From contig QPGO01000205.1 in NCBI GenBank assembly GCA_008632985.1, positions 62,001-125,165 of the forward strand: a DNA stretch of 63,165 nt. The letters are read 5' to 3'. Both the position numbers and the translations under genes were made by a program. Under the pieces are notes generated by a model. The model made no database searches and had not been told where the DNA came from. It saw only the letters and a list, made by a program, of their open reading frames with translations. Shown in pieces: positions 1-63,165 of this stretch (the first letter of the stretch is position 1; each line of letters starts with the position of its first letter). Origin of the DNA: Psammoneis japonica. Lineage: Eukaryota.

Positions 1-387
1 AAATGTGACATCTGTAAAAATCTACATGCAAGCAGACACGTGTGTTTCTCACTGGATTGTTCTTTCTCGGGAAAGGCGCGTCATGCCATTTCGCACACTT
101 GCACATCTGATCCGCACTGTAGCTTCTGCTGTACGCAGTCTAGTGAAGAGACTGGTGTGTTCCCTGCTGAATGTCACAGAGCGCTCAAGAAGCACGAAGC
201 GCAACAGAAGACAACACAAAACCGACCGCATCTTCTTTCACGACGACGCTATCGATATAAACCATGTTGTTTGCCAAAGAGGTTTTACCTTCCTTTGACT
301 CTTGGAAACGTGATTTTGCACGCTCAGAGCATGTGAGCAAGACAACGTCTTATCATGCTGCGGTGATTATTTCGCACGATGTCTTCC

Positions 388-621
388 AGTCACGACTCAA
401 CGTCATTCTGGTTGCATCTCACGACTGCAACCCAGACTCAGATTTTCTCTTCGAAATAATTGGCTCATCACAAAATCGATTCAAACAGAAGCAACGACAT
501 TCGTCATAATTTCTAGACAACGACTTTCAACAAGCGTCTGTTTACCTCTGTCGCTGTTCACATTGCTGCCAACCTCCGAGGTCTTGTCCATCCTACTCAG
601 CTGTGGGACTGTATCTCGACT
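388..621 (+). repeat. 5' LTR of Copia-1 (termini AGTC...GACT)
   Basis: Matches 7396-7629 with 8 transition mismatches; followed by PBS-like GGTTGTAGAGACC. Confidence 0.95.
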
Positions 622-783
622 GGTTGTAGAGACCAATTTACGCGTTGACGAGAGCTCCTGACCGAGTCATCGTCACGGACGCTTTCGGTTTTTGATTTTG
701 AAGCAAACCCGGGAAATGGCTGAGTCTCTCTTGCTTCTCTCATCTTCACTCTAACAAGAACCTCCCATGCTGCACTCTCCATC

Positions 784-3700
784 ATGGCTGCCATCGATCC
801 AGATGTTCTGGCGAAGGCGTTTGCCGATGCAATGGCCGCCAACGCCGCGGCGACCACTCCTCCGGCTCCAACCAAGCCGTTGCGTGGTGGAATTCACCCA
901 ACCCACGGGGTTTACATTGGTGGTTCCAAACTCAACAACAACTGCGAACAATCCAACGATAGAACCTGCCGATTCGCCTCTCAGCGCCGTCATCCCAAGG
1001 CTCTCGACTCGATAGAACGATCTCTCCGCGATCAACAAGCTTCCGCAATGACTTCCAAGTTCAACGGTCGACTTGAGATTTCGGACGGTCCCATCAACGA
1101 GCTTGACAAGGACCATTTCGTCAAGACTGTTCGAGATCTAGTAGAAGCCCACGGTCAGCAGACGTTCTACCATGTCAAGGACAGCGACGACAAGGTTCAA
1201 CATATCTTCGACCATCTTCACGAGTTCACTGTGACCGATCTCGTGAACGAGTACACGGTTGGGAAAACAGCTGCCGATGACACCAAGTACGACGAGATCG
1301 AGCTCGACGACATCGGGCTCTCTCAACTTCTCGTTCACTCAAGAATCACTAATGCCTTTCGCGAGAAAATCGAGACCAAGTTCAACCATCTTTCGGACTG
1401 CCAAGACTACCCTGGATCTGTTCTCTTCATGATGGCTCTCGACACTTGCAATGCTAGCGCTCTAACGGACATTGAGACGGCTAAGAAGCAGCTAGAAGAC
1501 CTTAGTTTGGTCAACTGTCCCGGCGAGGATTGCACGGACTTTGCTGCCGAAGCTCTTTGCATCGTGAAAATTGTGCAGACCGACTGCGCGCTTCCGGCAA
1601 ACACAAGCTCCAAGCTGCTCCACAAGATCTCCTCCACGTCCTCTGAATGCTTCAATCGCCGAGTCTACAACAAGCTCGACGACGTCAAGGCTATGGAACG
1701 CAAGTGCCGCCTCAAGAATCCTGCTGACATCGTGTCCGATAGCGATTGCAGAACGCTCGGACCAGTCGGCATCATTGCGTGGATTCAAGAGCAACACAAC
1801 GAACTCGTGAAGGATGGGGAATGGCCTGCATTAGTCGCCAAGCTACCCGAGAGCAATCTTTCGACTACGGATGACCCTGGGAAGACGAAGCACTGTTATG
1901 GTTGCGGTCTCGAGGGGTGCACCAAGAAGACGTGTCCGAAGTGCAACGCCAAACCGCCGCGCGACGATCCTCCTCCCAATCCGCCGCCTGCAGCCGACCC
2001 TTCCAAGAAGAAGAGGCGACCCATCGCTGCCTGGCGTGCTAAATTTGACGGAGAAACGAAGAAGGACAAGAATGGCAAGGAATGGAAGTGGTGTGCCACG
2101 TGCAAGGCGAAGGGTGCCGACAAACCTGGAATCTGCCAGCAGCACTCTACCGCGGAACATACCGACGACCGCAGGCAACCTCCCAAGGAGACCCCAGCAG
2201 GGAATTTGTCTTCCGTTGCTGATCCGGATGGTGGCGTGCCCATGGGTCTGCCCGCTCAGACTGCCAAGGAACCAGAGGGAGACGAATCCGACCCCAACGA
2301 GTTGGTTTTCACGGGAATGTGGTGCGCGGCTACGGATCCCGTTACCGACCCGGATTTCTGTTCCGCCCCTGTCACCACTGCAATTATTGTTACTCCGGCT
2401 TCTTTGGCCGAGAGGGAGAGCGACACAGTCATTAGCACTGAGGTGGTTTGCATCGAAACGAGCCCACCTGTACTCACCTCAGTCGTGGATCCAGTCGTGT
2501 CTCCCATCGTGGTTGAGACTGTCACTCCCGAAGACGCCGATGACTTCTACGAATGCTCCGACGCTTTCTCTACCTTTGAAAACGAACCACCGGCTATTGA
2601 GTTGTTTCCGGCCTCGAAGCTGTACTCCATCAAGCATCCAGATGAGTTCTTTGACGCTCCCGCACATTTGACGGATGTGCTGTCAGACGACACCAAGTTA
2701 GATCTCATCCTTGAACACGACGTACACTTTGAAGACGCATGCTGCGACTCACCTCCGTGTGTTGCGCATCGTGGCTTCGATTTCTACGATCCAGAGGTCC
2801 TGGATGCGGATGATTGTCACGAGGACGTCGAAGACAAGCCCACTTCGCGTCGCTCACTCTTGGGTCGAGTCAAGCTATTCACATTCTGGCTCGCCGCCAT
2901 GTTTTGGGAAACGGTGCTACATCTTTGCTTTGCTCCGATCCCATGTGTCCCTCGAGCTCTTCGCCGCCAGCGCAAACTCCCAACTTTGCACGGGTTTCCA
3001 GCCTCCTGGATGGTCCTGTCCGTTGCAGTGATGGCATGGTCAGCAGTTTACGCCGGTCAACAGCCCGAGCATCCATTCTCGAACGCACCAAGTCGTTTTT
3101 CGACCGCTGGCTCTCAAGTCTACCACATTGTGGAAGAGCTAGATGACCGGATAGTGTTAGATACGGGGTCACTGTTCGAATGTCACAGGATCAAAGGCAC
3201 GCAAGCACTCACCGAGTTTGTCGCGCGAAATCCGTCACACGCACTGAGCACTCGTCTCAAGGACTACTGGGAGAGCCTAGAAGTAGCTGAATGGTCTGAT
3301 GCGATAGACGAATCAGCCTTCTTTGACACCTGTGAGGAACTGGAACCTCTCGACGACCAGAAGCATTTCTTTGACGCTCTTGAGGACTTCAGCCCGGATT
3401 TCTTCCGGATTGACGAGCTCTGTCTGCCGCATCACATCGTGGACACTGCCCATTTTCAAGATCCTGTGGAACTGTTGGAGGAAGCAAGTGTTAGACCAGT
3501 CGTCTATAATGCCTCCACCATCCAACTGCTCACCGGACAATCACAAGCCGACCTCCTTGCATCCGATCCGCAGGCACTCATCGGTCTGTCGGACGAGGCT
3601 CTCACGGTCGTCATGGATGCTGGTGCCACGTTAGCCATTGCCCCCGATAAAGATGATTTTACGGGGCCTGTGACTGTTCCCAAGAAACCCTTGCAGATCA

Positions 3701-6700
3701 ATGGGATTGCCAACGGTCTTGCCATCCAGGGCACCGGTCCGGTTGCGTGGGTGTTCACAACGCCGAGTGGGGCTACCATCCAACTGAACACCATGGCATG
3801 CTGCGTCCCTGGAGCCCGTCAGCTCCTGCTGTCGCCTCAACGCCTCTTCAACGAAGAGAAGGGGGTACGTGGGAAGTGTGAGGGCGATGAAACCACTTTC
3901 CGTTTACATGTTGACGGGATGGGCAAGTTGGTTGTGTCATGTCATCCATCAAGCCACTCACCTGTTGCGTCGATGACCAAGGGCGCATCTGCCGCTCCTC
4001 AAGTGAACCTTCAGATCCTTAACGAGGAGAATCAAAACCTCACGGCAGGCCAAAAGCTTCTTCTCGAAATGCACGCCCGTTTTGGCCATTTGAACTTTGG
4101 TCGCATCCAAGCACTTCTCCGCGCAGTTCCGTTCCTTTCGAACCGTTTCAAGTCCGCAGCGAAGTGTGACCACCCAAGATGCGAGGCATGCGAACATGCT
4201 AAAGGTCATAGACGCTCTCTTGGATCTACTCACAAGTCGACAGTCCCTGAACACGACGGGGCCCTTCGAGCTGACCATCTTCGACCGGGTCAGGCTGTCA
4301 GCGTTGATCATTTTGAGTCGCGCCTTTTAGGCCGCACCTTCGACTCTTGTGGCACAGCCACGTCCAAGCAATTCAAGGGCGGTTGCATCTTTGTCGACCA
4401 CGCCTCTGGCTATGTCCAGGTCGAGCACCAACTGGGTTTCTCCGCTGTTGAGACGATCCGTGCGAAGCAAGCGTTTGAGAAACATGCTTTGGACCACGGG
4501 GTCATCGTCCAAGAATTTCTTACCGACAGTGGCGCTTTCAAGGCCAACGCTTTTGTACAACACACACGAGAACATGAACAACGTCTCCGTTTTTGTGGAA
4601 CCAATGCCCATCATCAGAACGGCGTCGCAGAGCGGGGCATCCGCAGCATCTCCAACATGGCGAGAGCGATGTTGCTTCATGCATCAATCCACTGGAAAGG
4701 GGGAATTGACAGCTCCCCATGGCCCATGGCAGTTTCTTGCGCCACGTGCATCTACAATGTCACCCCAAATTCCAAAGGACATTGCCCAGCGGACATTTTC
4801 GCCGGTTCGACAGTGCCAAGACATCGGTTGCGCGACATTCACACATGGGGATGTCCAGCGTACGTACTTGACCTGACCCTCGCTTCCGGGAAGAAGCTCC
4901 CGCGTTGGGAGCCTCGCACTCGTCGCGCTTTGTTCGTGGGACTCAGTGCCATCCATTCCAGTGAGGTTCCTTTGGTCCTCAATCTTCAAACTGGAAGTGT
5001 TGCACCTCAGTGTCATGTGGTCTTTGACGATCTCTTCACTGCCGTGCCATCAATCGAGAGGGAGACGGATCCACCTGATCACTGGGAACACTTGTGCCTC
5101 AACCAATCGATGTGCATCCCTCTGGAGAAGGATCAGGCAGTTCATTTACATGATGAGTGGCTTACCCCTCCAGAGCGTCAATGTAAAGAACGAGAACTAG
5201 CCAGAGCAACACGCATTCGCGGGCATTTTGAGCCTGCTCCATCGATTGCTGTGCCGGATTCACCCACTTCTCGCGACGACGTTGCCGATCGAGTCGCACC
5301 TGCGACTCAGCAGCCAACGCCACCAGTCCCACCTGCGACTCAAACTCCTGCAGACTCTACGGACTCTACGCCAATTCAGCCACCTGAACCTCAAGATGGT
5401 AACGGACTTCCGCCACCCGAAGCGCCGACGGAACCAACAGCTCCTCCCCCAGTCGAGACACCTCCTGTGACGAATCCAGAGGGAGCACCAGGGCTGCGAC
5501 GGTCTTCACGGTCAACCAAGGGACAGTTCAACTCTACCAAGTTTGTAGATGAGGTCTGCTTCAGCTCCGTCGAGGAAATGCCGCTGCCGATCGGACACGA
5601 GGCTCAACCAGCATATCTGGCGACTCTCGAGACGGATTTGGACAGTGGTGCCATCAATGTCGGCAATCCACGAGCCTGCGCAGCTAGCAAGAAAACCAAG
5701 GACCCTGACATGCCTTTGTTGCACAATGCTCTGAAAGGTCCGGACTCCGACGAATGGATCAAGGCAATGAAAATTGAAGTCAACGCACTCACACATCGTC
5801 GAGCCTGGAAAGCAGTCGAGCGTCAGCCGCACATGAATGTACTTCCAGGCACATGGGCACTAAAGCTCAAGAGACTCCCAGATGGAACCCCTCTCAAGTA
5901 CAAGGCCCGATGCTGCGTCCACGGTGATTTGCAGAAAGAAGGAGTCGACTGCTTCGAAACCTGCGCGCCGGTTGTGCAATGGTCCAGTGTCCGACTCATG
6001 CTCACTGCGGCATTAAAGGAGGGATGGACTGCACGACAGGCGGACTGTGCCACAGCCTTTTGCCAAGCTGACATCGCCGAGGAAGTTTGTGTAACACCGC
6101 CGAAGGGATTTGCGCCAAGGTCGGGACTCAATGTGGTTCTCAAACTTTTGAAAGGACCACACGGCCTAAAACAGTCTCCCAAGGGCTTCTACGAGAAGTT
6201 ACGAGCTGGTTTAACCAAGCGCGGATGGGCACCTTCAGCCATAGATCCCTGTTTGTATTTCAAAGAGGGCATGATGTGTGTGGTGCACGTCGACGACACC
6301 GTTTTTGCTGGAGCTTCAGCTGAAGCTCTAGAAGCCGAAATTCGCAAGTTAGGAGTCTCCGACGACGAACATCGCCACGCATTTGAACTTAGAGACGAAG
6401 GAGAAGTCGGCAACTTTCTCGGTGTCAAGATCGAAAAGCTCTCCGAGGGTCGATTTCTACTCACTCAACCCGGTCTAATTGACAAGGTCCTACGCACCGC
6501 ACAGATGCAGGATTGCAATGGAGCATCTACTCCAGCTCTACCTACGGCTGTTGGTGCCGACACGGACGGCCCACCTTTTGATGAACCCTGCGATTGTCGC
6601 TCAGTTGTTGGAATGTTGATGCACTTGGCAGCGAACAGCCGGCCAGACATTGCATGTGCCACACATCAAGCAGCTCGATTCTCATTTGCACCCCGAGCGT

Positions 6701-7467
6701 CCCACGCTGCTGCAGTGAAGCGGATGCTCCGATGCCTCAAAGCAACTGCTGCTGAAGGTCTCATTCTCAAGCCTGCGCAAGATCATCGAGTTGATTGTTA
6801 CGTCGATTCTGACTTCGCGGGGTTATTTGGTGTGGAAGATGGTCAAGACCCAGTTTCTGTCAAGTCCAGGACTGGACACCTCATCTGCTGCGCCGGCTGC
6901 CCGCTTGTCTGGGTGTCCAAGCTACAGACTCTTGCAGCATTGTCGACTATGGAAGCGGAATATGTTGCACTTTCTCAAGCTGTGCGCGATCTCATCCCTG
7001 TTCGTGAAGTTCTCAAGGAGCTCAACCACCACGCATTCGGAAAGTCTGACCGCCAAAACCCAATCACGACTCACTCCAAGGCTTTTGAGCTCGCAACCCA
7101 AGGCACCGATGACTCGCCTGTAGAGCAGAATGTCCCGCCTGCGTCCGTTGTGTACGAAGATAACTCCGCGTGCCTCAAGTTCGCACGCATGCCCAAGTTG
7201 TCTCCGCGAACCAAACGCATCGGCATCCCGCACCACTGGTTTAGGACTAAAGTCGAACAATTGGAGATCGACATCCAACCTGTCAGCACTCTAGAGCAAC
7301 TAGCCGATCAGTTCACGAAGGGACTACGGACCGATGCGTTCCGCACGGCTAGAAAGGCTCTTGTGGGCTGGCAAGCTCTCTCGGTTGAGAGGGAGAGTCA
7401 CGACTCAACGTCATTCTGGTCGCATCTCACGACTGCAACCCAGACTCAGATTTTCTCTTCGAAATAA
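784..7467 (+). CDS. Gag-Pol polyprotein: open ORF but probably inactivated by missense changes
   Basis: Zn-knuckle CYGC..C..C; protease MDAGA; HARFGH..C..C; integrase core; RT KARCCVHGD/KGPHGLKQ/VVHVDD; RNase H YVDSDFAG/STMEAEY/QLADQFTK. Probable original stop at 7372-7374 now reads CAA. Confidence 0.93.
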   Translation: MAAIDPDVLAKAFADAMAANAAATTPPAPTKPLRGGIHPTHGVYIGGSKLNNNCEQSNDRTCRFASQRRHPKALDSIERSLRDQQASAMTSKFNGRLEISDGPINELDKDHFVKTVRDLVEAHGQQTFYHVKDSDDKVQHIFDHLHEFTVTDLVNEYTVGKTAADDTKYDEIELDDIGLSQLLVHSRITNAFREKIETKFNHLSDCQDYPGSVLFMMALDTCNASALTDIETAKKQLEDLSLVNCPGEDCTDFAAEALCIVKIVQTDCALPANTSSKLLHKISSTSSECFNRRVYNKLDDVKAMERKCRLKNPADIVSDSDCRTLGPVGIIAWIQEQHNELVKDGEWPALVAKLPESNLSTTDDPGKTKHCYGCGLEGCTKKTCPKCNAKPPRDDPPPNPPPAADPSKKKRRPIAAWRAKFDGETKKDKNGKEWKWCATCKAKGADKPGICQQHSTAEHTDDRRQPPKETPAGNLSSVADPDGGVPMGLPAQTAKEPEGDESDPNELVFTGMWCAATDPVTDPDFCSAPVTTAIIVTPASLAERESDTVISTEVVCIETSPPVLTSVVDPVVSPIVVETVTPEDADDFYECSDAFSTFENEPPAIELFPASKLYSIKHPDEFFDAPAHLTDVLSDDTKLDLILEHDVHFEDACCDSPPCVAHRGFDFYDPEVLDADDCHEDVEDKPTSRRSLLGRVKLFTFWLAAMFWETVLHLCFAPIPCVPRALRRQRKLPTLHGFPASWMVLSVAVMAWSAVYAGQQPEHPFSNAPSRFSTAGSQVYHIVEELDDRIVLDTGSLFECHRIKGTQALTEFVARNPSHALSTRLKDYWESLEVAEWSDAIDESAFFDTCEELEPLDDQKHFFDALEDFSPDFFRIDELCLPHHIVDTAHFQDPVELLEEASVRPVVYNASTIQLLTGQSQADLLASDPQALIGLSDEALTVVMDAGATLAIAPDKDDFTGPVTVPKKPLQINGIANGLAIQGTGPVAWVFTTPSGATIQLNTMACCVPGARQLLLSPQRLFNEEKGVRGKCEGDETTFRLHVDGMGKLVVSCHPSSHSPVASMTKGASAAPQVNLQILNEENQNLTAGQKLLLEMHARFGHLNFGRIQALLRAVPFLSNRFKSAAKCDHPRCEACEHAKGHRRSLGSTHKSTVPEHDGALRADHLRPGQAVSVDHFESRLLGRTFDSCGTATSKQFKGGCIFVDHASGYVQVEHQLGFSAVETIRAKQAFEKHALDHGVIVQEFLTDSGAFKANAFVQHTREHEQRLRFCGTNAHHQNGVAERGIRSISNMARAMLLHASIHWKGGIDSSPWPMAVSCATCIYNVTPNSKGHCPADIFAGSTVPRHRLRDIHTWGCPAYVLDLTLASGKKLPRWEPRTRRALFVGLSAIHSSEVPLVLNLQTGSVAPQCHVVFDDLFTAVPSIERETDPPDHWEHLCLNQSMCIPLEKDQAVHLHDEWLTPPERQCKERELARATRIRGHFEPAPSIAVPDSPTSRDDVADRVAPATQQPTPPVPPATQTPADSTDSTPIQPPEPQDGNGLPPPEAPTEPTAPPPVETPPVTNPEGAPGLRRSSRSTKGQFNSTKFVDEVCFSSVEEMPLPIGHEAQPAYLATLETDLDSGAINVGNPRACAASKKTKDPDMPLLHNALKGPDSDEWIKAMKIEVNALTHRRAWKAVERQPHMNVLPGTWALKLKRLPDGTPLKYKARCCVHGDLQKEGVDCFETCAPVVQWSSVRLMLTAALKEGWTARQADCATAFCQADIAEEVCVTPPKGFAPRSGLNVVLKLLKGPHGLKQSPKGFYEKLRAGLTKRGWAPSAIDPCLYFKEGMMCVVHVDDTVFAGASAEALEAEIRKLGVSDDEHRHAFELRDEGEVGNFLGVKIEKLSEGRFLLTQPGLIDKVLRTAQMQDCNGASTPALPTAVGADTDGPPFDEPCDCRSVVGMLMHLAANSRPDIACATHQAARFSFAPRASHAAAVKRMLRCLKATAAEGLILKPAQDHRVDCYVDSDFAGLFGVEDGQDPVSVKSRTGHLICCAGCPLVWVSKLQTLAALSTMEAEYVALSQAVRDLIPVREVLKELNHHAFGKSDRQNPITTHSKAFELATQGTDDSPVEQNVPPASVVYEDNSACLKFARMPKLSPRTKRIGIPHHWFRTKVEQLEIDIQPVSTLEQLADQFTKGLRTDAFRTARKALVGWQALSVERESHDSTSFWSHLTTATQTQIFSSK
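7387..7395 (+). other. Polypurine tract of Copia-1
   Basis: GAGAGGGAG abutting the 3' LTR. Confidence 0.8.
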
Positions 7468-7629
7468 TTAGCTCATCACAAAATCGATTCAAACAGAAGC
7501 AACGACATTCGTCATAATTTCTAGACAACGACTTTCAACAAGCGTCTGTTTACCTCTGTCGCCACTCACATTGCTGCCAACCTCCGAGGTCTTATCCATC
7601 CTACTCAGCTGTAGGACTGCATCTCGACT
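7396..7629 (+). repeat. 3' LTR of Copia-1
   Basis: Direct repeat of 388-621. Confidence 0.95.
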
Positions 7630-8077
7630 CTTCCCAGACGACGATCCGCATGTTGAGAAGATTCGCTCCTTGGCAGAAAAAGATCGAAAGTTCTGTCAAT
7701 GTCTACAGGACGATGAGCATCTCCGCACCAAGTTCACCAACTGCCATGAAGATAGTCACGAGTCGCCGACAGAACGCGCTCTTCGAAATTTCATCTACGA
7801 ATCCATGACGGAACGAGTTGATCTCGCATTGACGCAGAAGGCACTTCTTGGCAAGTACTTTCAGTTGCTCAGTGAGAATGACAAGGTCTCACTCCATGGT
7901 CTAGTGGACAATGAACTTGGTTACATGCCTCAGCATTTGCGACGTGACATGAAGAACTACGAAAAGGTCAGTCGCATGGCAATGGGTAACATAGTTTCTT
8001 GGAACTACTTCACCATGGACGAACACGAGGCGAAACACCCAACCCACCCAACGACGCCTTACATGTTTGATGATTGA
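7630..8077 (+). pseudogene. 3' part of a hypothetical gene interrupted by Copia-1 (5' part about 264-387); paralog of 23799-24362
   Basis: Joining the flanks restores ...HDVFPDDDPHVEKIRS...PYMFDD, collinear with the uninterrupted copy. Confidence 0.6.
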
Positions 8078-8962
8078 AGAACGCATGCCATGATTGCGTA
8101 GAATTTTGATGTTGAGCCAAGCTTTCCCCATTGTTCCGAATGAGATCGAGCTAGCGGATCCTTTTTTGCAAATGCTCTCTCGCACCCATGCTGATGCCGC
8201 GTAGAATGTAGGATGGACAAAGCTCTAGATGTGTTGCGTGTATGTCTCTTTTCTCTTTCCGAGCAGCAAGTGCTAAATTGAGATTGGCATCGTGATCAAA
8301 CAGACTACACACAGCATCGTTCACAATGGCAGCAGCAGTCGCAATGGCAACAATGGCAGCAATGAACGCAACAGTAAAAACAGAATTAGAAGTCGCAATG
8401 GTAACAAAAGCAGCAGCAGTCGCAACAGTGACAACCGTCGCAACGCAATGGTCTCATTCGTTTGAGGAAATCGAATAGAGCACAAGCTCACTACGCGCTC
8501 TTGTGGCTCAGAGCAGGCCTGCGTAGGTTTTCTACTGGGATTAACTCGACTGACCTGGCTCTTGACGCCAAAGCACGACAAAACAACACGTGAATCCTTT
8601 GCCGTCGTTCATTTGTCAACCACGAAGAATTACCCAAGCCAATGAGACACATATGATCCGCAAGTGCCTCATTGACATAGCTGTACCCAAATGGCTTGGT
8701 AACTGTTCCGGGTGGGCCCGAACTCGTTCGACGGAACGTGTCATCGTGGTGGTGTCGCGCGCCAAAAATCGGTGGTTTGCAAGATCCAGCTTGAGATGAC
8801 TTGATAAAACAGGTTGTGAGAGAACCGAGAAGAGACCCGATCAGTGCAATCACTGATCGGAACTGACTTCTAACGGCTTCTTGAATGTCCAATGCGTTGG
8901 TTAACACACATGTGTCAGAGAGGGCACACTCGGTCACAAAGCACATGTGCCTGTCTCACCCA

Positions 8963-11900: not shown

Positions 11901-12800
11901 TTCATTCAGTTCACGGAAATCAGATGCCCGCCGCACTCGACCGTCTTTCTTCGGAGCAATGAAAGTGCCAGCTGCCCATTCTGCAGGTCCACATGGTCGT
12001 AAAACTCCTGGGTCCACTGAATGTTTCAGTTCCTTTTTAAACGCTTCCTCATTGACACGAGCAACAGGAAAAGGTTTTGAGTGATGGGGCATGGCATTTT
12101 CTTCCACCTCCAGGTGTGCCTTTTCATGAGGACAGTGACCCAAGGTGCCGTCAAACAAAGTTGAGCATTTTTCCAACACTGCCAACAGCTTCTTCTTTTG
12201 CTCTTCCATCAGGTGATCTAGGTTGCAAACCACTTCCACAGGATCCATTGCTTCACACTCAGCATCCAACACATGGCTGTCACATCCATTGTCACATCCG
12301 CAGTTCAATTCGTCCTCGCAGTCTTCATCGAATTCATCCATGCGGTCCAGTGCAACATGCCAGTTGCAGGACTTGGGCCAATGACGAGGCTCCTTCATCG
12401 GAATGATGCGGTCCAATCAACGCAGCCTTCTTGTGTCACAATTCAAATGGAGTCCAATTTTGTCTAGGAAGTCTTGACCCAAAACAATGTCGTGCGCACA
12501 CGGAGCATCAAACACATGAGCCACACAACCGTCAACTCTTCTGGTCTTGTTGAATTCGGGTGGTGCAATGTCAATTAGAGCCACCCAATGACCCGACTGA
12601 AAAGGACCTGCAACGGTTTGAAAAGCTCGCACTCCTTGCTCATCAATGGATGGTGCAGCTCCACGAGGCAAAACTTGAGAAGAGATCATGGTGTGAGAGC
12701 CACCAGAATCAAACAGCACACGCATCACACAATTCGACTCATGACGCTGGATCGATTTGGCAACCAATGGAGTTGATGGGACGATGAACAATTTCAGCAA
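8963..12800 (-). pseudogene. Gypsy pol fragments (protease, RT, RNase H, integrase)
   Basis: LFDSGGS; PKKDGRVR..DFRELN and THVDN; HTDASD and [21 protein letters not shown] and HGPF motifs; broken by stops, frameshifts and a MITE. Confidence 0.9.
9471..9867. mobile_element. 397-bp MITE inserted in the Gypsy integrase
   Basis: Imperfect TIRs starting GAC and containing AGGTGGGAC; 4-bp TSD GCCT; removal restores IQQAEQ. Confidence 0.88.
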
Positions 12801-17604: not shown

Positions 17605-17705
17605 CTGAAACCTGCTGAATGTTTCAGCAGATTCTGCTGAAACCTGTCATGTTTCAGCAAATGCTGAAACATGCCATGTTTCAGCAAATTTTGCTGAAAC
17701 ATGCA
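17605..17705. repeat. Array of short palindromes TGTTTCAGCA..TGCTGAAACA
   Basis: Several alternating-orientation units; related array at 18500-18655. Confidence 0.8.
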
Positions 17706-18499: not shown

Positions 18500-18655
18500 C
18501 ATGTTTCAGCAGATTTTGCTGAAACATGTTTCAGCAAAATGCGTGTTTCAGCAAGTTCTGCTGAAACATGTCATGTGTCAGCATTTGCTGAAACATGCTG
18601 CATGTTTCAGCAAAATTTGTTGAAACATGAGTCCCATTTGCATGTTTCAGCAAAT
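18500..18655. repeat. Second TGTTTCAGCA..TGCTGAAACA palindrome array
   Basis: Same unit as 17605-17705. Confidence 0.8.
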
Positions 18656-27195: not shown

Positions 27196-27196
27196 C

Positions 27197-27202
27197 TTTT
27201 TT
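27197..27202 (+). terminator. Pol III oligo-T terminator
   Basis: TTTTTT just after the tRNA 3' end. Confidence 0.7.
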
Positions 27203-27981: not shown

Positions 27982-28010
27982 TTTTTGCATTTGGTGCAAT
28001 AAACTCCTTC

Positions 28011-50084: not shown

Positions 50085-50254
50085 TTGCGGACTAGCAGCA
50101 TCGGGACAATCTAACGGATGTCTGGGACAGATGACAATCGTGTGCTAGATGAGAAAGAAAGTGAGCAAAGGAGAGATCATCGGATCTCTCCATGCTGTCT
50201 GTGCCAGTCTGTCTGACACAAGGGAGTGCACTCCCCATCTCGGGATGTCTGTCA
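50085..50254 (-). repeat. 5' LTR of Copia-A
   Basis: Direct repeat of 28011-28179; PBS adjacent. Confidence 0.93.
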
Positions 50255-50372
50255 CCTTCAAAATTGTTTTTTCCCAAATTGAAGGGCAAGTGTGCACAAA
50301 ACTTGTGTTCTTGCCTTTTGTGCACACTCACCTTTTGATTTTCAAAAAGATCAAATTTGAAGGAGTTCAATG

Positions 50373-53300: not shown

Positions 53301-56300
53301 AAAGGGTGAGACCACACACTCTTGAGGCCAACTTGAGTGGTGCAAGCACAGTGTCAAGAATGATTGGTTGATCAAGGTTCCCAATGGTCTGCAGCGCATC
53401 CCCACCATTGATGGATGCATCATTCCTGTTGACATCAAAGGCTTCCTTCCATGCATTGCCACACACCCACACACTGATGCCAAATGGGACACTCTGCTTC
53501 ATGTTGTCCTCGCTGGCAATGACACCTGGGACCCATCTGTTCTTGACCACCAGTTCACCGATGATGAGAAGTGGCACAATGCTGTGTCCAACCTCCAAGA
53601 CAACGAACCCAACTGCCAACCTCTTTGATGAGCTCGGCAACTGTTGCCATCAACATGTCGTCAACAATGCCATGCTTGCTGACTCTGTCTTAGACAACCA
53701 CATCCTCCCAACATCTGATGATTTCTGCTGCGAATGCCACAAGTGTGAGATTGATCCCAAGGATCCTGACTGTGAGTCTCTCTGCCCCTGTTTTGGCCTC
53801 CTCCTGAAGGACACTGTTTGCCGCACTTTTGATTGCATGACACAGCACACCCTCATGCCCACTTTTGATTGCATGACACAGCACACCCGCATGCCCACCA
53901 GCATGCACCTGAAAAGGGCACGCAAGTTGCCCAACCCAGCTCTCAATGTCCACCAACACAATGAACCCATTGCCACTGACATGGTGCACTCTGACACCCC
54001 TGCCATTGATTCTGGATGTGTCAGCGCACAACTCTTTGTTGGCATGGAATCCCTTGTCATGGATGGGTGTGGCACCAAGACTGGCAAGAAATTTGTCAAC
54101 ATGCTCAAAGACAACATCCACAACTGCGGTGCTCCATCCAAGCTCATTGGTGACCGTGCTCAGGTTGAGATCAGCAACAAGGTCCTTGACATCCTCCGTG
54201 CCCTCTTCATCTCCAGTTGGCAAAGCGAGCCCCACCAACAGCACCAGAATTTTGCTGAACGCCACCCCCAAACTGTGAAGAACATGGCAAACACCATCAT
54301 GGTTTGCTTTGGATCCCTGGCCTGCACCTGGCTCCTTGCCCTGATGTGCGTGTGCTTTGTGCTCAACCACACGGCATCTGCCAAGCTTTGCTGGCGCACC
54401 CCCACCAAAGTGCTGTCTGGATCCACCCCCGATGCTTTCAATGGTGGGAACCCATGTGCTGCCACCTGAATGATTCTGACTGGCCATCCAAATCCTGTGA
54501 GTTACGTGGTCACCTCGTTGGCATTGCCAAACATGTGGGTCGTCACATGGCATTCAAAGTTCTTTCTGACAATGCTCAGAAGATTCTTTGCCGCTCGAGT
54601 GTGCGTTCCGCCCATGACCCGTCCACTTCCAACCTGTGTCTTCTGCCAAACCAGTCATCAAATCCCGACACGACTCCAAGGATTCACTGGATTTGTCAGA
54701 TGGGGAGGTGATCAGGATGCCCAAAATGCCATTCTTTGACCCTGAGGACATCGTTGGATGCACCTTCCTCATGAAGCCACAAAGAGGACGGACAACACCA
54801 CAGAGCCTGCATCATCAAGGCCATTGAAGACCATGGTTGGAAAATCAGTGACAACCTTGAACCAGTCAAATTCATTTGCTCCCCAAACAACAATGAATGC
54901 AAGGAAATCATTGCCTGCAATGACATCATGCACCACATCAAGCAAGAAGATGAGGATTCTACCCTCTGGAAGTTCTGATGCATCATCTCACATGAAGGAC
55001 CATTGAGACCTCACAACCCCCCCTCTTGGAAAGGCTCAAGCTGCAATGTCATGCTTGAATGGGAGAATGAGGAGATCATGTCCAAACCTTTTGCCATCAT
55101 TGCCAAGGACAATCCCGTCACCTGTGCCATTTGCACATGTGAACACTGAGATTGAAGGTTGGAAACACTTCTGCACCACAGCTCTGCACCAGAAGAAGCC
55201 ATTCTCCATGGTCAACCAAGCCAAACTGCACTCCTTTCATGCTGCACCACGATGCAAGTGCAGGTGTGAAGCACCCCAAGACTGCAAGCACACGCACCTT
55301 GGCCCTCAATGAGCGCCATGGCAACCGCAAGTGGGGAGATGCAATGGACCTTGAGATGACTCAGCTTGGTGAGTGCAAGGTCTTCCATGACTGCGGACAT
55401 TGCAAGGACTCCAACAGCACCCCAGAAGGACACAAGAAGATTGGGGTGCATCTTGTCCACAACGTCAAACATGATGGATGGCACAAAGCACAACCTGTTG
55501 CCAATGGACACCTCACAGACGTGCCCATCAACAGTGTCCATTCTGGAGCAGTGTCTCTCCACGGCCTGTGACTGATGATCTTCCCAGCCAAACTCAACAA
55601 CCTGGAGACTTGGGTGACTGACATTGGGAGCGCCCATCTCAAAGCTGCAACCAAGGAGAAACTGCACATTGTGGCAGGCCCTGAATGCAGTGAGCAGGAA
55701 GGACACATCCTCATCATCCACAAGGCCTCATGCAGACTCTGCAGCTCTGGCCTCAGGTGGCACAAACGCTTTGCCAATTGTTTGCATGCCAAAGGTTTCT
55801 TCCCGTGCCACTGCACAGGAATGATGACCACTGCAAATGCGCAGCAGTGCATGTGGACAATCTGGCCTTTGCCGTGAAGAACCCCCAGGCTTTTGCAGAC
55901 ACTCTCATGGAGAAATGCAGGTTCAAGCTCAAGGGCACCAGACCATTGGAGTTCCATCTTGGTTGCAACTTCACCTGTGCTTCTGACGGCACCCTGTGCC
56001 TTGCCCCTTGCAAGTGCATTGAGCGCATGGTCAACAGCTGTGCACACCTCTTTGGGGAAAAGCCTTGCACCAATGTGCTTTCCCCTCTTGACAAGGGAGA
56101 CCACCCTCAGCTCAACACCTCTGAATTGCTTGGACTGGATGGCATCCACCAACTCCAATCCTTGATTGCTCCCTGCAATGGGCTGCATCCCTTGGTTGCA
56201 TTGACATCACCACCACAGCCTTCATGTCCCTGTCTGGCTTCCATGCAGCACCCCGTCAAGGCCACCTGGACTGTGCCAAATGTGTCCACACCAGATTCCT

Positions 56301-57241
56301 GTCCAAGATGCAACATGGTGCCCTCTGAGCATGCACCAAGGAACTCAACTGTTTGGACCTCCCCAAGCCCGTGCATGACTGGGCTCAATCTGTGCATGGG
56401 GAGGTGAAAGAGCTGCTCCCACAAGATGTGCCCAAGCCACTTGGCAAGTTTGTCACCATGCCTCACTGCATTCTTGATGCAAACTTGCTCCATTGCATTC
56501 TCACCAGACACTCTGTCAAGGGCATTGTTCATTTCCTCAACAAGTTTCTGACTGATTGGTTCTCCAAGAAACAAGCAAAAGTCAAGACTGCAATGCATGG
56601 ATCTGAGTTTGTTGCCGCAATGACATGCATTGAGCAGATCATTGATCTGCGCATCACTTTGCATCACCTTGGCATCCCCATTTGTGAAACATGTTGCATG
56701 CTCATGGACAACAAGTTGGTTGAGGACAGTGCTGCCATCCCACACTCCAAGCCACACAAGCGACACACCGCCCTCTTGTTCCACAGCATGTGCGAGGGGA
56801 TTGCCTCCGGTTTCCTTGAGTTTCATTTCATCAAAGGTTCCCGCAACCCAGCTGACATCCTCAGCAAGCACTGGGGCTGCTCCCAGGTCTGGAACCTCCT
56901 TCGTCCTCTAATGTTTTGGAACTTCAATCCCAAGGTTTTCAACCAATCCGACCTCAAATCCATTGCTGTGGACTCCTCAAGCAAACTGGGGAGTGACTGG
57001 ATTTGAACAAGATTTTGGTTTGTCACACATGATTGTGTGTGCTCTCAGTTCTGTGCACAATGTGCAACGCAGTTTGCTTTCAAGCCACTCAGCTCACAAG
57101 AACAACAACAGCAAGCACCAACATCATGACACCAGTCTTTTGGCTTCTGCAATGGTCTCTGCATGCAGAGATTCATCTGCCATTTAGACAGCAGCAAGGA
57201 GTCATTGTTTTTTTCCACCCAGTCATCTTCAATTTCTGTCA
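50373..57241 (+). mobile_element. Old Ty1/Copia element (Copia-C, different lineage), heavily degenerate
   Basis: LTRs 50373-50616 and 56994-57241 (TG..CA); TSD CAATG; DRGANSG, SEPHQQHQNFAER, VHVDNL, GSEFVA, NPADILSK motifs. Confidence 0.93.
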
Positions 57242-57246
57242 CAATG

Positions 57247-60200
57247 TGCCAAACTGCACAGAAAATTGGCCTCTCGCGTGATGGATTGCTCATCACCTGG
57301 GGCTGGAAAACAGGCCTTTTGTGCAGAGGGGGCAAATTGTGCAGCAGCTTTTTCCATTCTGTCATCCATGCCAACTCCCTTGTGACAGCAAAGAGAAAGA
57401 AAAATGTCACCAACAAACCCCGCACACTCATTTTGGCCTTGCGTGGCTCCACTTTTGCCTTGACCTTTGGTTTGGACACAATGTTGTTGTGGCGGGCCCG
57501 CACATGTGACAACATGACTCAAAGACAAGAGCTCTTGTGTGACAAACAATCTGTTGAAATTTTGCATGCATGTGAGCTGCCAAAGCTCATCCAATCTTTT
57601 GCACCATGGGCTGAGTTCAGCTGGCATTGTTGAATGTTTTGAATGGTGCAGCAATGGCTGGCTCTCTGAAAAGTTGTCACAAAAGGGGCTGGCAACAAGC
57701 ATCGTTGCATGTCTTCCAATTTCTGTTTGAGGTCCCACATCATGTTTGTGTTGTGAGACACAATCATCTGAGACAACTGCTCAGCAGAGTGCAAGAAAGA
57801 CACAGATTTCATGCTCATCATCCAACAAATTTGTGTCTTTTTTAGCAAAGAATTTTTTGCTGCATTGCATTTTCTGGAGTGACCCACCACTGCTCCAGCA
57901 ATGGGATTTCCCTGGTCTCAATGCTTTGCCAAAAGTCAATGAGTGAGGTTTCCAAAGCAGATCTTTAAGATGCAGAAATGACTGCATTGCCCAATTTGGA
58001 TGTGGCAGGTTTTGCAATGTTGCATTTTTTGTGTTGAGAAAGCTTGGGCTTGGGGGGTCACAAAATGGTCTGAGAAAAGGGGGCAGAAACTTTTCTCTTG
58101 AAAGTCACTGAAATTGCCACAAGTCTGCAGCTGCTGTGCTGACAAATGAAAAATGGCACCTGCAAACGAAGTGGAAAAAAAGCTCTGTCATGGTGCAATT
58201 TTTGTTGCCATGAGGTGAACAGCAACCACTGATGTGTGTGTGTGTGGGCATGTTCATTGCCATGCTTGTCATTGCTTTGGGCATTTACAAGGTGTTGAAT
58301 TTTTTATGCTGGCATTTCAGACAAATGATGTTGTGCAAATTGACAAAATTGTTGTCATTTGCATCGCCTGCCACTGGAACACATCAAGCTCAGCTGCATG
58401 GCTTGGCATCACACAGAGCTCCAACCAGTGCCAGAGCTCATTGCAGAGTTCTTTTCATGTGGGAAGGCAGTGACAAAAGAGCTCATGATGTGTCAATGTG
58501 CAAAGTGTGCATGCAGCTGGACTCACAAAAGAAGATCAACACACCTGAGCATGGGGCTGCTTCGCCACCAACCTTGGCCTTGAGATCAGCTTGGTGGCTG
58601 GCTCAGTGAGAAAATGGTCCAAAAATTGCTGCCTCCACATTGCAACAGAGCACAAAAGGTTTGCCAACTTGTCAAGAATTGTCACAATGAGTTGCAAGAG
58701 TGTGCCAACATGCCCACCAACATGCCCACTGAGTGCTGAATGTCTGCCAACGTGTTTGCACCAACATGTTTGCCAAAACATGTCCACCAGTGTGCATGTC
58801 AGCAGCAAGCTCTGTGGCATCAAGGCAAGCTGCAGAGCTGTGAGAAACAAGGTGCTTTTGACAACAAGGGCAGCTGTTTGAAGTGACACATTGTGGCTCT
58901 GCGCATGGACCAAGCAGAAAGGTGTGGTGAGCTCTGCAGCACCAACAATGAGGTGGACAGAGAGGAGTGCCAAGGACACAGCAAAAAAGGCTGGAGAGAG
59001 GATCAAATCTGTCAGAGCAGAAGAAGGTGTTTGATCTTTTTGTGAAAAAGTGCTGAATTTTGGCTGGGGTGCTGTTGTGAAACCTGGTGAAGTGCCTCAT
59101 GTGCCACAAGCAGCAACGCTGGAAAAAACTTGAGCAAGCACAATTGTGGCCACACTTGGCACAGCAAAAAGAAAAATGCCTCTGGCAGCTTTGACCTCCT
59201 TCCAAGTGCACAGCCAACGTGTGCAGATCCACAGTGGCATGATGACATGAAGAGCATGGCTTGCACACACACAAAACAGCTGCTGCTGTCCTCTCCAGCT
59301 CTGTGCTTCCACGTGCAAAAAGAAAACCCACACTTTTTTGACAACATGCACACATCAGCCAACCAACAGTGTCCAGATGCAAAATCCCCAAGAAAGTTTG
59401 GGTTGCCAAGGAGGCTGCCAATGCAGCGGCAGGGCAAAAAAATCATCCCTCGTGCTTTCCCGTGCAATGAAGGCACTCAACAAAAAGTCAGCTTCATTTT
59501 CAAATGTCCAATGCCATGGGCAACACCCATCCACCACACAACTTGCAAGACACAGGTGCAAAGAGCAGAAGACCAACAATGCTCATCTCTGCCAGGGCAT
59601 CATTGGCTCCAGTGGGGGGTGAAAGTTCAGCTAAAACTTGGAAAAAATGTGTTTGAGCAGGTCACACAGGATTTGGTGCTCATGACTCGGGGGTGCACGA
59701 TGCAAAATTGACACTTTCTGAACACCACACAGATGATGGCACAAACACAAAACCCATTTCATGGCAGCACTCTGTTTCATGGCTTGTTGCTGAACTTTTG
59801 ACAACTGCACTTGACCTCTTTCATGCTGCGAGTGGGTGCAGCAATCCATGAAACTTCTTCTGCAAGCCACACACATTCTTCCATTTTTAGATTTGAATTT
59901 TCCAATCTCTGCAATCAATTCACAGCAAATGATGGCAAGGAAGATTCTCAAATTGCCAAATTTTGTCATTCCAGAGCATTTTGGTGTCAATGTGATTTTG
60001 TCAACATTGCTTGAGTGCTTTTATGAACCATGTGCACCCACAAATTTTGCAAACAAACTTCGTGCATTTTCACTCTCCCACCCCTGCTCTCTCCAAATCA
60101 ATGGCATCAGGTCCAAACCATTGCAATTGCTTCATCAAAGCAAGAACAATTTTTTTGGATCCAAGCTGCTGCCTGCTGCAGGAAAACCCAGTGCCAGTGT

Positions 60201-63165
60201 CGTTTGCTTTCTTGAGGATGGCTTCAACAGCCAGCTCCCCACCCATCTCATTCTAAATTGCTTCCACACCAGTCTCCTGGGCTGTCACTGTCTTGCACAA
60301 CCACAACTCTGTCATTCATTGACATTTCCTCATGTTTGCACCTGCTCTAACTCAGCAGGTGCCAAAAATCTGGCAAATGGTGAGTTGATGCATGTCTGCA
60401 TGCAACATGGTGTCATGAGCAGGTGCAATGGTGTGTTTGCACAAAACTCATCTTGCTGCCTTTCTCTGATGGTCCCTTTGCAGCCTCAGTCACTCAAGGC
60501 CTGGGAGCCATGGCTGCTGTCCCAAAGCTCTGCAACAACAAAGAGGATTGAACAGGTGCAGATCCTGTGGAGGAGTGCAAGGGGCGAGCAAGCCAGCATG
60601 TGCTGTGAGCAAGGTGGCTGTTCTTGGTCAGGCTGATTTGTTGTTTTCCTGTCCTCTTTTGTTTTGAAATGTGCACAGGTGTGAGAGCAATTTCCAAGCT
60701 TGCTTGGAGAAAGAAATCTTGTTTGCTTTCCATCCAAAAAGTGGCTGCTTCAGAGCTGATCCATGCAAAGCAGTCACTTCCATCAGAAGAGTGCTTGTTC
60801 ATGACCAAAATGTGGCTGAGTTTGTCACTTGCATTGATGGTGACCACAAGTGTGATGACAATGACGTGGATGCACTGCACAACTGCATGACAGGTGGTTG
60901 CTTGCACTTTGCACAAGTGACAAAAAAGAAGCATCTCACTCTGACACAAAACTCCCTGTTTGTTCAAGACAATCAACATGAGACTGCAGCAGAAGGCAAC
61001 TCTTCCAGATCTAACAAGGTGCTCTGTGACTTGTGTGCAAGGCATCACAAGGCTGCTTGTGCATGTGCAGAAACCTTGGAAGTTGATGAGCTTGAGTCAT
61101 TCAATGAAATTCTTTGAGATCCCATTTGGAGGCCACTGCCCTGGCAACTTGGGACTCCTTTCTCTTTGGTGCTTTGTGCTGGGAAGCAAGGTGGAGGTGC
61201 TGTCATTGCCAGAGATGCAGCTGGTGTGTTCCTGCCTTTGAGGAGCTGACATCAAAATGTTCTTCCTGAGTGCAAGTGCAGATCAGCACAGCTTTTGCCA
61301 GCTCCAGAATTGCTGGCTCTGTCACCTCAAATTGAGCACTGGCAGTTGCATTGAACAGTGGCCATGACATGACATTGAGTGTGCCCAGCTGTCACACTGC
61401 ATTTTTGAGCACCAGCTGCTGTGTTGCACCAAATGCTGGTTTCTGCATCACATTGAGTGCAGCATCAAGGCCATTGTCATCATTGGCGCAGGCTCAAATC
61501 CCTGCCAATTTCAGTCTCTCTTTTTGTTGTTGACCACCATTTTTGCTGGACTTGTTTGTGCTTGTTTGTAGTGCATTTGTTGGGCCATCCATTCAATGCA
61601 GTGTGAGCTCCAACTCCAGGTGGGGGGCATGCACTGCTGGGCTGTGACACCATTTTTTTTGCCGTGAACCACATGTCACATGATGTGTGCATTTTTGTGT
61701 GACTTTGGTGTTGTTTTGTGCATTGGCAGCAGAGGGTGTGCTGGCTGCAACCACAGACAGAAAATGCATGGAGCGCATGTGTGGGCAGAGAAAGTGGGGG
61801 CCAGCAGGAGTCAGCACCAAACAATCTGGAGCTTCTTGGTGGCAGGTGCTGCACCAGCTGCACCAGCCCAACTGCAGGTGAGAAATGGCAGGAATGCATG
61901 TGTGCCAAAAAAGCTGTGGTGTGCACATTGGGGGACAACACAGAAGCCCTCCAATCACAGGCACTGGAGGGTGTCAGAGAGTTGTTGTGTGCACAGCACA
62001 AGATCTTTGCATTTCAGCATTTTTCTCACAGAACCAGCAACTCTCAAGCTGCAGAAACAACATCTCTAATTAACCCAATGCAGCAACCAAGAAGGAAGAC
62101 AAATGAGTGTGTGTGTGGGTGTGGGGGATCAAGAGCCATTGAGTCTGGCACAACAGCCAACTAAAACAAGTTGAAAAGGGCTCTTGGAGCAACTGGGCAA
62201 CAAGAGCTCTTGTGCTTTGATTGGAGTGCTGTGGCAGAAAATGGCAAGATGCCCAAAGCCTCAAAACAACAGCATGCTGGGATGCACTGTTGAGCATGGC
62301 TGCAGAGACATTTGGAATGACAGGAAGAAAAGCCCCTTTGCTGGAAGCTTGGCTCCCATTCCAAGAGTGGAGCAAGTCCAGTGCACGAACTCACTTTGGC
62401 ACAATCTAAAAAGTTCTTCAACAAAAAAAAGAGCATTGGGCAGAAGGCACACAAACTGCCAAGGACAGCTGCCATTTGCAGCTGGCACAACAAATGCAGC
62501 ACAGCTGTTGTCAGGACAGATCCTGTTCAGTGCAAGAGTTGAGCCAATCTTTGCTGTTGTTCTTGCAAAGACAGAGCTCTTGCTGCACTGACCCTCACTT
62601 GTTGGAACTTGTTTTCAAGTGCTTGCTCATTTTTGACTTTGTGCAGGTGTGAAAGTTGCTGTTGGGCTTCACTCAGGTGGGGGATCCCTCTCTTTGCACT
62701 CCAGCCAGAGACCTTTCACTCTCAAGCACCAGTCTGCATGAGGCCAGTTTTAACAGCCATCAAAAATGCTCACATTCAGTGTGCATGGATGTTGCCCAGT
62801 TCTTTGCCAGCACTGTTCAAGGTAACTGCCCATGCAACAACAGCTGACCAAGTGCCCCACACACTTGCAAGACAGGCACTCCTGTGCCTCATTCAAGGGG
62901 CAACCATCATTTTCTGAGGAGGAGGCAAAGTGGCACAAAACGAAGCTCCAACGTGACCCAAAATGAAGTCCCCGCCCCTTGCTCAAGATTGTTGACACAG
63001 AACCTTGGCTGAAAGAAACTGTGCAACTGCCATCATGAGAGGCTGTGTGTGTGCATGTGGAGAGACCTTGAATGTCAAGAGCCTGGAGAGCTTTTTGCTC
63101 AAGTGCTGCAAGATCATCCCCTGTCCATGGTGGCCACAATGTCAGTCACCTGGGGCTCCTTGTTT
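57247..63165. other. Unclassifiable, almost fully TpA- and CpG-depleted degenerate DNA
   Basis: TG/CA-saturated; no convincing motif recognised; shares short repeats with 20400-20750. Confidence 0.5.

Follow-up and report, generated by a model that had tools for sequence, protein, structure and literature searches.

A retrotransposon nest almost stripped of TpA suggests dinucleotide-specific hypermutation of integrated DNA in a probable diatom

To our knowledge, the hypermutation defenses against mobile DNA known until 2026 all change C to T: repeat-induced point mutation (RIP), APOBEC editing, and the decay of 5-methylcytosine (5mC). Here we describe a window of 63,165 bases from Psammoneis japonica (contig QPGO01000205.1, positions 62,001 to 125,165 of the forward strand) in which the change runs the other way. 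The window is a nest of Copia, Gypsy, and LINE (long interspersed nuclear element) retroelements and unclassified repeats, and the dinucleotide TpA has been converted to TpG or CpA throughout most of it.

The closest described counterpart is the TpA-specific hypermutation of integrated nucleocytoplasmic large DNA virus (NCLDV) and virophage DNA in the chlorarachniophyte Bigelowiella natans (Mettrop et al., bioRxiv 10.64898/2026.01.13.699255). According to the available text of this preprint, 231 of 302 new nuclear point mutations in a mutation-accumulation experiment fell within one giant-virus and one virophage region. All but one of these (230 of 231) were A>G or T>C, and the text places all of the 230 on TpA. 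The rate in the affected regions was ~6e-7 per site per generation versus 3.5e-10 elsewhere, and the process was seen in some lines only. The B. natans genome also contains clustered windows that are poor in TpA and rich in CpA and TpG, and its TpA-poor genes have reverse-transcriptase (RT) and DDE domains in excess. The authors draw the comparison with RIP and propose an ADAT2-like deaminase on homology alone; their Discussion also states that ADAR prefers a 5' U. A term search of the available text of the preprint found no mention of diatoms, CpG, or retrotransposons. In the literature that we searched on TpA hypermutation (diatoms, retrotransposons, RIP, adenine deamination, and genome defense), this preprint alone was relevant.

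The process that shaped the present window is most likely of the same kind. As in the available account of B. natans, the products of TpA are TpG and CpA only, the DNA acted on was already integrated (as judged below from pairs of long terminal repeats, or LTRs, and from one copy of a repeat termed R), and the outcome can be framed as a genome defense comparable to RIP. The two cases differ in host, which is a rhizarian there and probably a diatom, and thus a stramenopile, here; in target, which comprises giant-virus and virophage inserts there and retrotransposons and other repeats here; and in extent, as the NCLDV region of B. natans has a Rho of 0.45, whereas the process here is near saturation, with observed-to-expected ratios (O/E) for TpA of 0.00-0.1 over tens of kilobases. 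CpG decay runs alongside in our window, and a mutation rate has been measured in B. natans only. A preliminary description of the window, made from its letters alone, presented this type of hypermutation as new. That overstated the case, because an A:T-to-G:C process at a single dinucleotide had already been measured in B. natans; it has so far been reported for this one chlorarachniophyte, in a preprint, and is not categorically new here.

The compositional scar is extreme. With 200 mononucleotide shuffles of the whole window (50% G+C) as the reference, TpA is seen 532 times versus 3892 +/- 47 expected (O/E 0.14, z -72), and CpG 2328 times versus 4000 expected (O/E 0.58, z -38). In contrast, TG (6158, O/E 1.60, z +55) and CA (6381, O/E 1.57, z +51) are in excess, so that the strong TpA depletion noted at the outset is upheld. 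TpA poverty with TG/CA gain is the mark of the B. natans process. Among 126 segments of 500 bp, the median TpA O/E is 0.08, the maximum is 0.72, and only four segments exceed 0.5. TpA O/E is lower where TG+CA is higher (Spearman -0.72). TpA depletion also accompanies CpG depletion (Spearman +0.73), and CpG itself is anticorrelated with TG+CA (Spearman -0.86). Because CpG decay also feeds TG and CA, part of their excess is attributable to it.

Depletion is arranged in blocks that track nested elements of differing age (Table 1), and block edges at nested insertions are sharp: TpA O/E is 0.09 at 23.0 kb, 0.52-0.72 from 23.5 to 25.0 kb, and 0.00 at 25.0 kb. The youngest element, a Copia retrotransposon termed Copia-1, has a TpA O/E of 0.19-0.49 and a CpG O/E of about 1. 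Copy B of repeat R, which lies between heavily depleted stretches, retains more TpA (0.52-0.72) and has a CpG O/E of 1.03-1.13. The LINE follows with 0.07-0.27 for TpA and 0.67-0.99 for CpG. TpA values are lower still in the Gypsy-type relic (0.00-0.18), the region of palindromic clusters at 17600-18640 (0.02-0.08), and 46.5-49.5 kb (0.00-0.08). From 50 to 63 kb, TpA O/E is 0.00-0.14 and CpG O/E 0.03-0.44, with TG and CA at about 2; within this block, 56-63 kb reaches 0.00-0.12 and 0.03-0.30, respectively. The earlier statement that TpA is nearly absent is thus correct for most of the window but not for the youngest blocks, namely Copia-1, 23.5-25 kb, and 45.5-46 kb (TpA O/E 0.64).

These values separate two processes. 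In Copia-1 and R copy A, much of the TpA is gone (O/E 0.19-0.49) with CpG O/E still near 1, and older blocks are short of both dinucleotides. Because TpA is already lost where CpG is still about 1, TpA loss is faster than CpG decay, separable from it, and independent of it. CpG decay is present in the window, yet it is absent from the youngest blocks. Transposable elements (TEs) are methylated in diatoms, and the loss of CpG with gain of TG/CA in the TEs of the window, including 33 CG|TG/CA sites in repeat pairs, is consistent with 5mC-driven decay. Such decay would account for the CpG gradient across blocks, from an O/E of 1.1 down to 0.03, and for part of the TG/CA excess, but it cannot remove TpA. 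Some metagenomic relatives of the Copia family exhibit CpG depletion with only moderate TpA depletion, as in the locus L043 (0.40 and 0.22).

The direction of change is evident from tyrosine codons. Changes of TAY to TGY (Cys) and of TAY to CAY (His) are exactly the two products of transition at TpA. In the RT of Copia-1, the YVDD motif now reads HVDD at nt 6286. The other altered motifs in the preliminary description were also located, at 5947 (DCFETCAP), 6151 (KGPHGLKQ), and 6721 (RMLRCLK), as was an open reading frame (ORF) of 975 aa with only 2 Tyr that starts from Met at 32854, within the element termed Copia-2. Copia-1 has 14 columns in which at least 70% of 31 homologues carry Tyr; 4 of these still hold Tyr, and the remainder have changed to His (5), Cys (3), or Phe (2). 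Other conserved residues, in contrast, are kept in 330 of 368 columns (Fisher p 2.7e-7). At 40 Tyr positions of the Fragilaria protein P0002, Copia-1 carries 7 Tyr, 15 Cys, 9 His, and 9 other residues, versus 1008 Tyr, 15 Cys, and 138 His at 2331 positions in the pooled metagenomic relatives (those with at least 8 aligned Tyr positions).

The same pattern recurs in the LINE, which belongs to an element class unrelated to Copia. Its 19 conserved Tyr columns now hold 3 Tyr, 8 Cys, 2 His, 4 Phe, and 2 Asp, and 195 of its 262 other conserved columns retain their residue. Cys or His accounts for 18 of the 26 replacements in the lost Tyr columns of Copia-1 and the LINE together, which bears out the replacement of conserved Tyr proposed for these elements. 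Overall Tyr content is 0.9% in Copia-1 versus 3.1 +/- 0.5% (minimum 1.7%) in 135 related proteins. It falls to 0.0-0.3% in the Gypsy and Copia-2 frames: the two large ORFs of the Gypsy-type relic have 0 Tyr in 332 residues (the RT ORF) and 1 in 358. The Copia relic at 28321-30163 has 1 in 463.

The relatives of Copia-1 indicate that the Copia family was not TpA-poor from the start, because 80 metagenomic loci of this family have a median TpA O/E of 0.60 (5th-95th percentile 0.38-0.76). Nothing nearly identical to the window occurs among the 80 loci, whose best match reaches 81.5% over 65 nt; they supply a baseline for the family and not another sample of the organism. Relatives of the Copia-1 and LINE proteins that carry an organism name are all diatoms. 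A homologue from Fragilaria crotonensis shares 56% identity with Copia-1 across 98% of the region queried, and the LINE has many matches in F. crotonensis and also in Cylindrotheca fusiformis. The nearest ESM-Atlas clusters are assigned to Bacillariophyta wherever the phylum is known. It is from these relatives of TE proteins that a diatom host is judged probable. No protein match exceeds 63% identity, so the proteome of the organism itself seems to be missing from the collections searched, which also speaks, short of proof, against B. natans as the source of the window. One F. crotonensis cluster member is 2208 aa in length, akin to the 2247-codon frame of Copia-1, so the long N-terminal part belongs to the family.

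Two distant metagenomic relatives of the Copia family have a composition like that of the window: L066:1-1516 (TpA O/E 0.04, CpG 0.05, TG 1.99, and Tyr 0.2% of the matched frame) and L049:1-3688 (TpA O/E 0.25, CpG 0.13). As neither has DNA similarity to the window, other organisms in nature carry the signature. Both loci were dropped from the polarization of Tyr losses because they are too divergent from P0002 (35% and 33%).

Cys and His replacements are mixed within single elements, in a ratio of 15 to 9 (P0002 positions) or 3 to 5 (conserved columns) in Copia-1 and of 8 to 2 in the LINE. Both strands were therefore struck, as had been proposed, and editing of sense RNA is excluded as the main cause. 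Runs tests on how TG and CA succeed one another in the window give z values of 0.54 and -1.41. Strand-coordinated clusters, as would be left by APOBEC-like action on single-stranded DNA, were rejected on these values, and the lack of coordination argues against processive action on long single-stranded stretches.

Could the changes nevertheless have been made during retrotransposition, by ADAR/ADAT-like A-to-I editing of RNA or by deamination of first-strand cDNA, and then fixed at integration? Every identified element is a retroelement, and the LINE favors Tyr to Cys (sense-strand A>G) over Tyr to His, as such editing would. However, Copia-1 has both replacements alike, and TG and CA occur at equal frequency, interspersed with one another. 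TA sites also distinguish the LTRs of one element, and the mutations of R copy A lie beyond the Copia transcript. We therefore consider this route very improbable. ADAR hyper-editing and APOBEC editing in animals resemble the present case in that deaminase-type hypermutation is fossilized in retroelement copies, but they act on RNA or pre-integration cDNA and on one strand, whereas the changes here are post-integration and affect both strands. An ADAR-like process would yield sense-only A>G before integration; Copia-1 instead has His at 9 of the 40 P0002 positions and in 5 of the 14 conserved columns, besides the differences between its LTRs.

The timing of the changes can be read from copies that were once identical. 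The two LTRs of Copia-1 differ, over 234 columns, at four TA|TG/CA sites, one TG|CA site, one CG|TG site, and one other site, and have 5 TA and 12 CG sites unchanged. Approximately half of the TA-derived sites have thus changed; among CpG sites the figure is 1 of 13, and among the other columns it is 1 in roughly 190. The numbers are small, and we read them as pointing to a rate at TpA roughly 100-fold that of the background in this LTR pair. Because LTRs are identical at insertion, their present differences at TA sites mean that TpA was lost in DNA after integration. The LTRs of Copia-2 contain no TpA and differ at 6 TG|CA and 3 CG|TG/CA sites.

A second comparison is provided by repeat R, into which Copia-1 inserted cleanly, duplicating the 5 bp CTTCC. 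The interrupted copy A has TG/CA where the uninterrupted copy B has TA at 20 sites, and the reverse holds at 1 site; CpG changes between the two copies are balanced (4 and 6). A third R copy, found in contigs of sequencing runs X1 and X2, matches copy B at 10 of 13 listed sites and polarizes 4 sites as TA to CA, and at 1 further site copies A and B carry different products. One X2 contig links position 381 directly to 7629 with 6 shared letters and thus represents an R copy without Copia-1. Among the 2545 columns of eight repeat pairs, TA sites differ 36 times and are kept 41 times, and CG sites differ 33 times and are kept 88 times; all remaining columns contain only 94 other differences. Evidence for A>G or T>C at TpA is in each case a comparison of copies and not an observation of new mutations. 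The direction from TA to TG/CA, first proposed as the opposite of RIP, is upheld by the Tyr replacements, the repeat pairs, and the third R copy, and the assignment to genomic DNA instead of edited RNA is upheld by the LTR differences and the mutated target repeat R.

RIP of ascomycete fungi is triggered by duplication in the premeiotic dikaryon and needs RID/DIM-2. It shares with the present case an irreversible, dinucleotide-specific transition hypermutation of integrated repeated or foreign DNA and a strong compositional scar. Unlike RIP, which changes C to T mostly by converting CpA to TpA and so raises TpA and lowers G+C content, the process here destroys TpA, and G+C rises; neither higher TpA nor higher A+T is found in the window. 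The premature TAA and TAG stops expected of RIP are likewise lacking, as six-frame counts in the window give 321 TAA, 335 TAG, and 2916 TGA, and the Copia-1 frame is open. A TpA transition never yields a new in-frame stop, and TAA to TGA merely swaps one stop for another. Because TAA and TAG are removed and no stops are gained, the window is full of false long ORFs, with 83 stop-free frames of at least 150 aa. Since false long frames are to be expected, the open frame of Copia-1 is weak evidence of activity. Gene callers would over-predict genes in such a sequence.

Sequencing reads speak to whether the depletion is real. Contigs were built from exact 31-mers, and those of run X1 at a single-copy word depth of 55-71 match 14.6-19.9 kb, among the most TpA-depleted parts of the window, with 0-8 differences each. 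Differences between contigs and the window comprise 363 transitions and 56 transversions; at 40 of 429 variant places, the paralogous contig has TA/CG versus TG/CA in the window 24 times, and the reverse holds 3 times. A sequencing or assembly artefact might arise, for instance, if modified bases within silent chromatin were consistently miscalled at TpA and CpG. It is conceivable in that both are palindromic dinucleotides able to bear symmetric marks and both "convert" to the same TG/CA pair, and the sequencing platform of the runs is not on record. However, depletion of 95-100% would demand near-total miscalling, and the 31-mer contigs reproduce the most depleted parts. The intact frame of Copia-1 and its clean target-site duplication are unlike a noisy consensus, and the unrelated metagenomic contig L066 has the same composition. 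Moreover, the available text on B. natans reports its process from Illumina mutation-accumulation data (bioRxiv 10.64898/2026.01.13.699255). An artefact is therefore hardly credible.

A more substantial rival is an untargeted mutational bias, by which TpA would mutate rapidly everywhere in the genome, selection would spare genes and active master TEs, and dead DNA, whether repeated or not, would drift until free of TpA. The pattern does follow element age in part: blocks with the mildest TpA depletion also have the mildest CpG decay, and the little-mutated R copy B lies amid heavily mutated DNA as if insertion time alone counted. In addition, depletion is equally strong in multi-copy pieces and in those now at single-copy depth (15.2-18.5 kb, depth 55-71). 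Against such a bias, half of the TpA of R copy A, beside Copia-1, is gone, and neither CpG nor other sites have decayed to match, which local targeting explains better than age by itself. A rate ~100 times the background at all TpA sites would, moreover, presumably impose a heavy load on the Tyr codons of all genes. In B. natans, the one case with measurements, the process is confined, as far as the available text of the preprint goes, to two regions, at ~1000-fold above the rest of the genome and in some lines only (bioRxiv 10.64898/2026.01.13.699255). We regard untargeted bias as unlikely. Mostly by analogy with B. natans, we see a good probability that TEs or silent chromatin are targeted and not the whole genome.

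The sites that survive carry some information about the reaction. TpA with a 3' T (equivalently, a 5' A) makes up 12.8% of surviving TpA versus 28.8% in a baseline of 48 little-depleted relatives from one Copia family only (chi-square 147). Survival of ATAT and of ATAC/GTAT is ~4 times below average, and CTAG, CTAA, and CTAC survive best. This avoidance of TAT/ATA among survivors is possibly a flanking-base preference of the process. Raw ATG:ACA and TGT:CAT counts, which are diluted by TG and CA that were never TA, reveal no bias of outcome by flank. As TpA is self-complementary, its two products are the same whether A>G or T>C takes place, and the two changes are indistinguishable here.

In our estimate, there is an even chance that the chemistry involved is deamination of adenine in DNA, catalyzed by a deaminase that is ADAT2/TadA-like or of another type. 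A competing proposal, which concerns only this step, is that the thymine of TpA is modified and then becomes C through mispairing or faulty repair. The modification could, for example, be oxidation to 5-hydroxymethyluracil (5hmU), set as a silencing mark by a dioxygenase of the TET/JBP type. Older biochemical work found that 5hmU in dinoflagellates favors TpA. The data here fit T>C and A>G equally, and the symmetric flank effect without outcome bias suits recognition of a duplex site. In dinoflagellates, a TET/JBP homologue produces 5hmU, which is enriched in TEs and aids their silencing (PMC11572971). It is thus a silencing-linked modification of A:T pairs in an alga of the SAR group (stramenopiles, alveolates, and rhizarians) and a possible route to T>C at TpA. 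Unlike the present case, however, no mutational consequence or signature of dinoflagellate 5hmU is reported in the available text of that study (PMC11572971), and no evidence for 5hmU or JBP-type enzymes in diatoms emerged here or in the literature searched. The B. natans authors prefer an ADAT2-like deaminase, based on homology only, in the available text (bioRxiv 10.64898/2026.01.13.699255). Mutagenic modification of thymine is therefore the less favored chemistry, and we give it a rather low probability.

Taken as a whole, the window is probably explained by TpA-specific hypermutation of integrated TE DNA that has run near to saturation and is overlaid by slower CpG decay. In this scheme, the nest of Copia, Gypsy, and LINE elements and unclassified repeats would have integrated into the genome of a host that is probably a diatom. 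TpA in the integrated DNA would then become TpG, or CpA when the opposite strand is struck, by transitions ~two orders of magnitude faster than background substitution, until almost no TpA is left. Slower decay of CpG to TpG/CpA, of the 5-methylcytosine type, would act on the same elements. The elements would be disabled by missense changes, chiefly of Tyr to Cys or His, and long false frames would remain. The comparisons above demonstrate the direction of change, its specificity for TpA, its action on both strands and after integration, and its independence from CpG loss; the targeting and the chemistry are inferred.

Several observations weigh against this explanation or narrow its base. According to the Pfam and tblastn annotation, the window contains no host gene and only TE-derived or unannotated DNA; it also holds no demonstrably non-TE single-copy sequence. 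Evidence that is strictly post-insertion consists of the LTR and repeat-R comparisons only, which involve few sites, and R itself is unclassified. The eight repeat pairs contain 32 TG|CA sites, and the ancestor at these sites could be TA or CG alike. Summed word depth in run X1 (~4000-6000 versus ~60 for single-copy pieces) shows that the Copia-1 family has many copies, and part of its TpA loss may have been inherited from a mutated source copy. Finally, X1 may be source data of the assembly to which the window belongs, in which case agreement with its contigs is a consistency check only.

A stronger version is offered only tentatively, as a possibility that we doubt more than we believe. In it, a dedicated, chromatin- or small-RNA-guided editor of TpA in duplex DNA, either an adenine deaminase or a thymine dioxygenase, would be an old defense common to SAR algae from diatoms to chlorarachniophytes. 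It would kill transposons and integrated viruses through the loss of Tyr codons and of AT-rich control motifs, with no stops introduced, and would act earlier and faster than cytosine-methylation decay. If such an editor exists, the enzyme would be a natural, context-specific A:T-to-G:C editor of double-stranded DNA.

A saturated footprint on retrotransposons of a probable diatom would mean that the process is not confined to one species or to viral inserts; the process can run near completion and can be separated from CpG decay. The footprint also opens the search for the enzyme to a second lineage, one that is dominant ecologically and can in part be transformed; an effector that proves to be a TpA-specific DNA adenine deaminase would be of interest for base editing. 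There are practical consequences as well, because such DNA yields false long ORFs and biased G+C content, and its TE proteins are hidden from domain searches, as illustrated by the lack of any Pfam match in the most decayed 13 kb.

The features listed in Table 1 were annotated by scanning 169 stop-free frames of the window against Pfam and by mapping retrieved relatives onto it with tblastn.

Table 1. Elements and repeats annotated in the 63,165-base window
Feature	Position	Strand	Remarks
Copia-1, CoDi-like (diatom)	388-7629	+	LTRs 388-621 and 7396-7629; frame 724-7467; youngest element
Copia-1 target-site duplication	383-387 and 7630-7634		CTTCC, 5 bp
Repeat R copy A	left part 13-387, right part 7630-8451	+	older target of Copia-1 insertion
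Repeat R copy B	23582-24737	+	uninterrupted, little mutated; polarity reference
Gypsy-type relic	9834-13164	-	integrase, RVT_1, and aspartyl protease domains
Direct repeats flanking Gypsy-type interior	8778-8914 and 13105-13244		91% identical, 137 nt
Palindromic-unit clusters	17600-17710 and 18484-18640	none	units 27-32 nt (~29), ~0.9 kb apart
Copia relic	28321-30163	-	RVT_2; 66% identical to 35715-37199, inverse orientation
Copia-2	30369-37575	+	LTRs 30369-30571 and 37373-37575, 90.6% identical
LINE	38549-44417	-	endonuclease and RT
Copia fragment	37.6-38.2 kb		
Copia fragment	46271-46936	-	gag_pre-integrase; borders strongly depleted block
Most decayed block	50000-63165	none	no Pfam domain
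Copia-like remnant	56512-56919		lone remnant within most decayed block

The preliminary description listed Copia, Gypsy, LINE, Crypton, and MITE (miniature inverted-repeat transposable element) sequences among the affected classes. The first three are confirmed. The Crypton evidence could not be reproduced, as no Crypton, tyrosine-recombinase, or DDE domain was found among the 169 ORFs scanned against Pfam, and the sole basis for a MITE is the ~29-nt palindromic units. Their clusters at 17.6 and 18.5 kb are possibly the ends of a non-autonomous DNA element. The same Pfam scan found no recognizable domain in 13-28 kb or in 50-63 kb.

Some smaller features may also be recorded. The window contains one N, at position 23321. 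An internally repeated block without a Pfam domain occupies 25000-26500 (self-matches 25133-26388); its first part, 25001-25500, has zero TpA, and 25001-26000 exhibits a strong strand asymmetry, with 179 TG versus 70 CA. Two blocks surrounded by depleted DNA, 26501-27500 (TpA O/E 0.32-0.36) and 45501-46500 (0.64 and 0.33), have CpG O/E near 1 and are presumably recent insertions. X1 contigs bridge the repeats that flank the Gypsy-type interior, joining 8725 to 13257 and 8808 to 13092, which suggests that solo-LTR or deleted forms of this element are present elsewhere in the genome.

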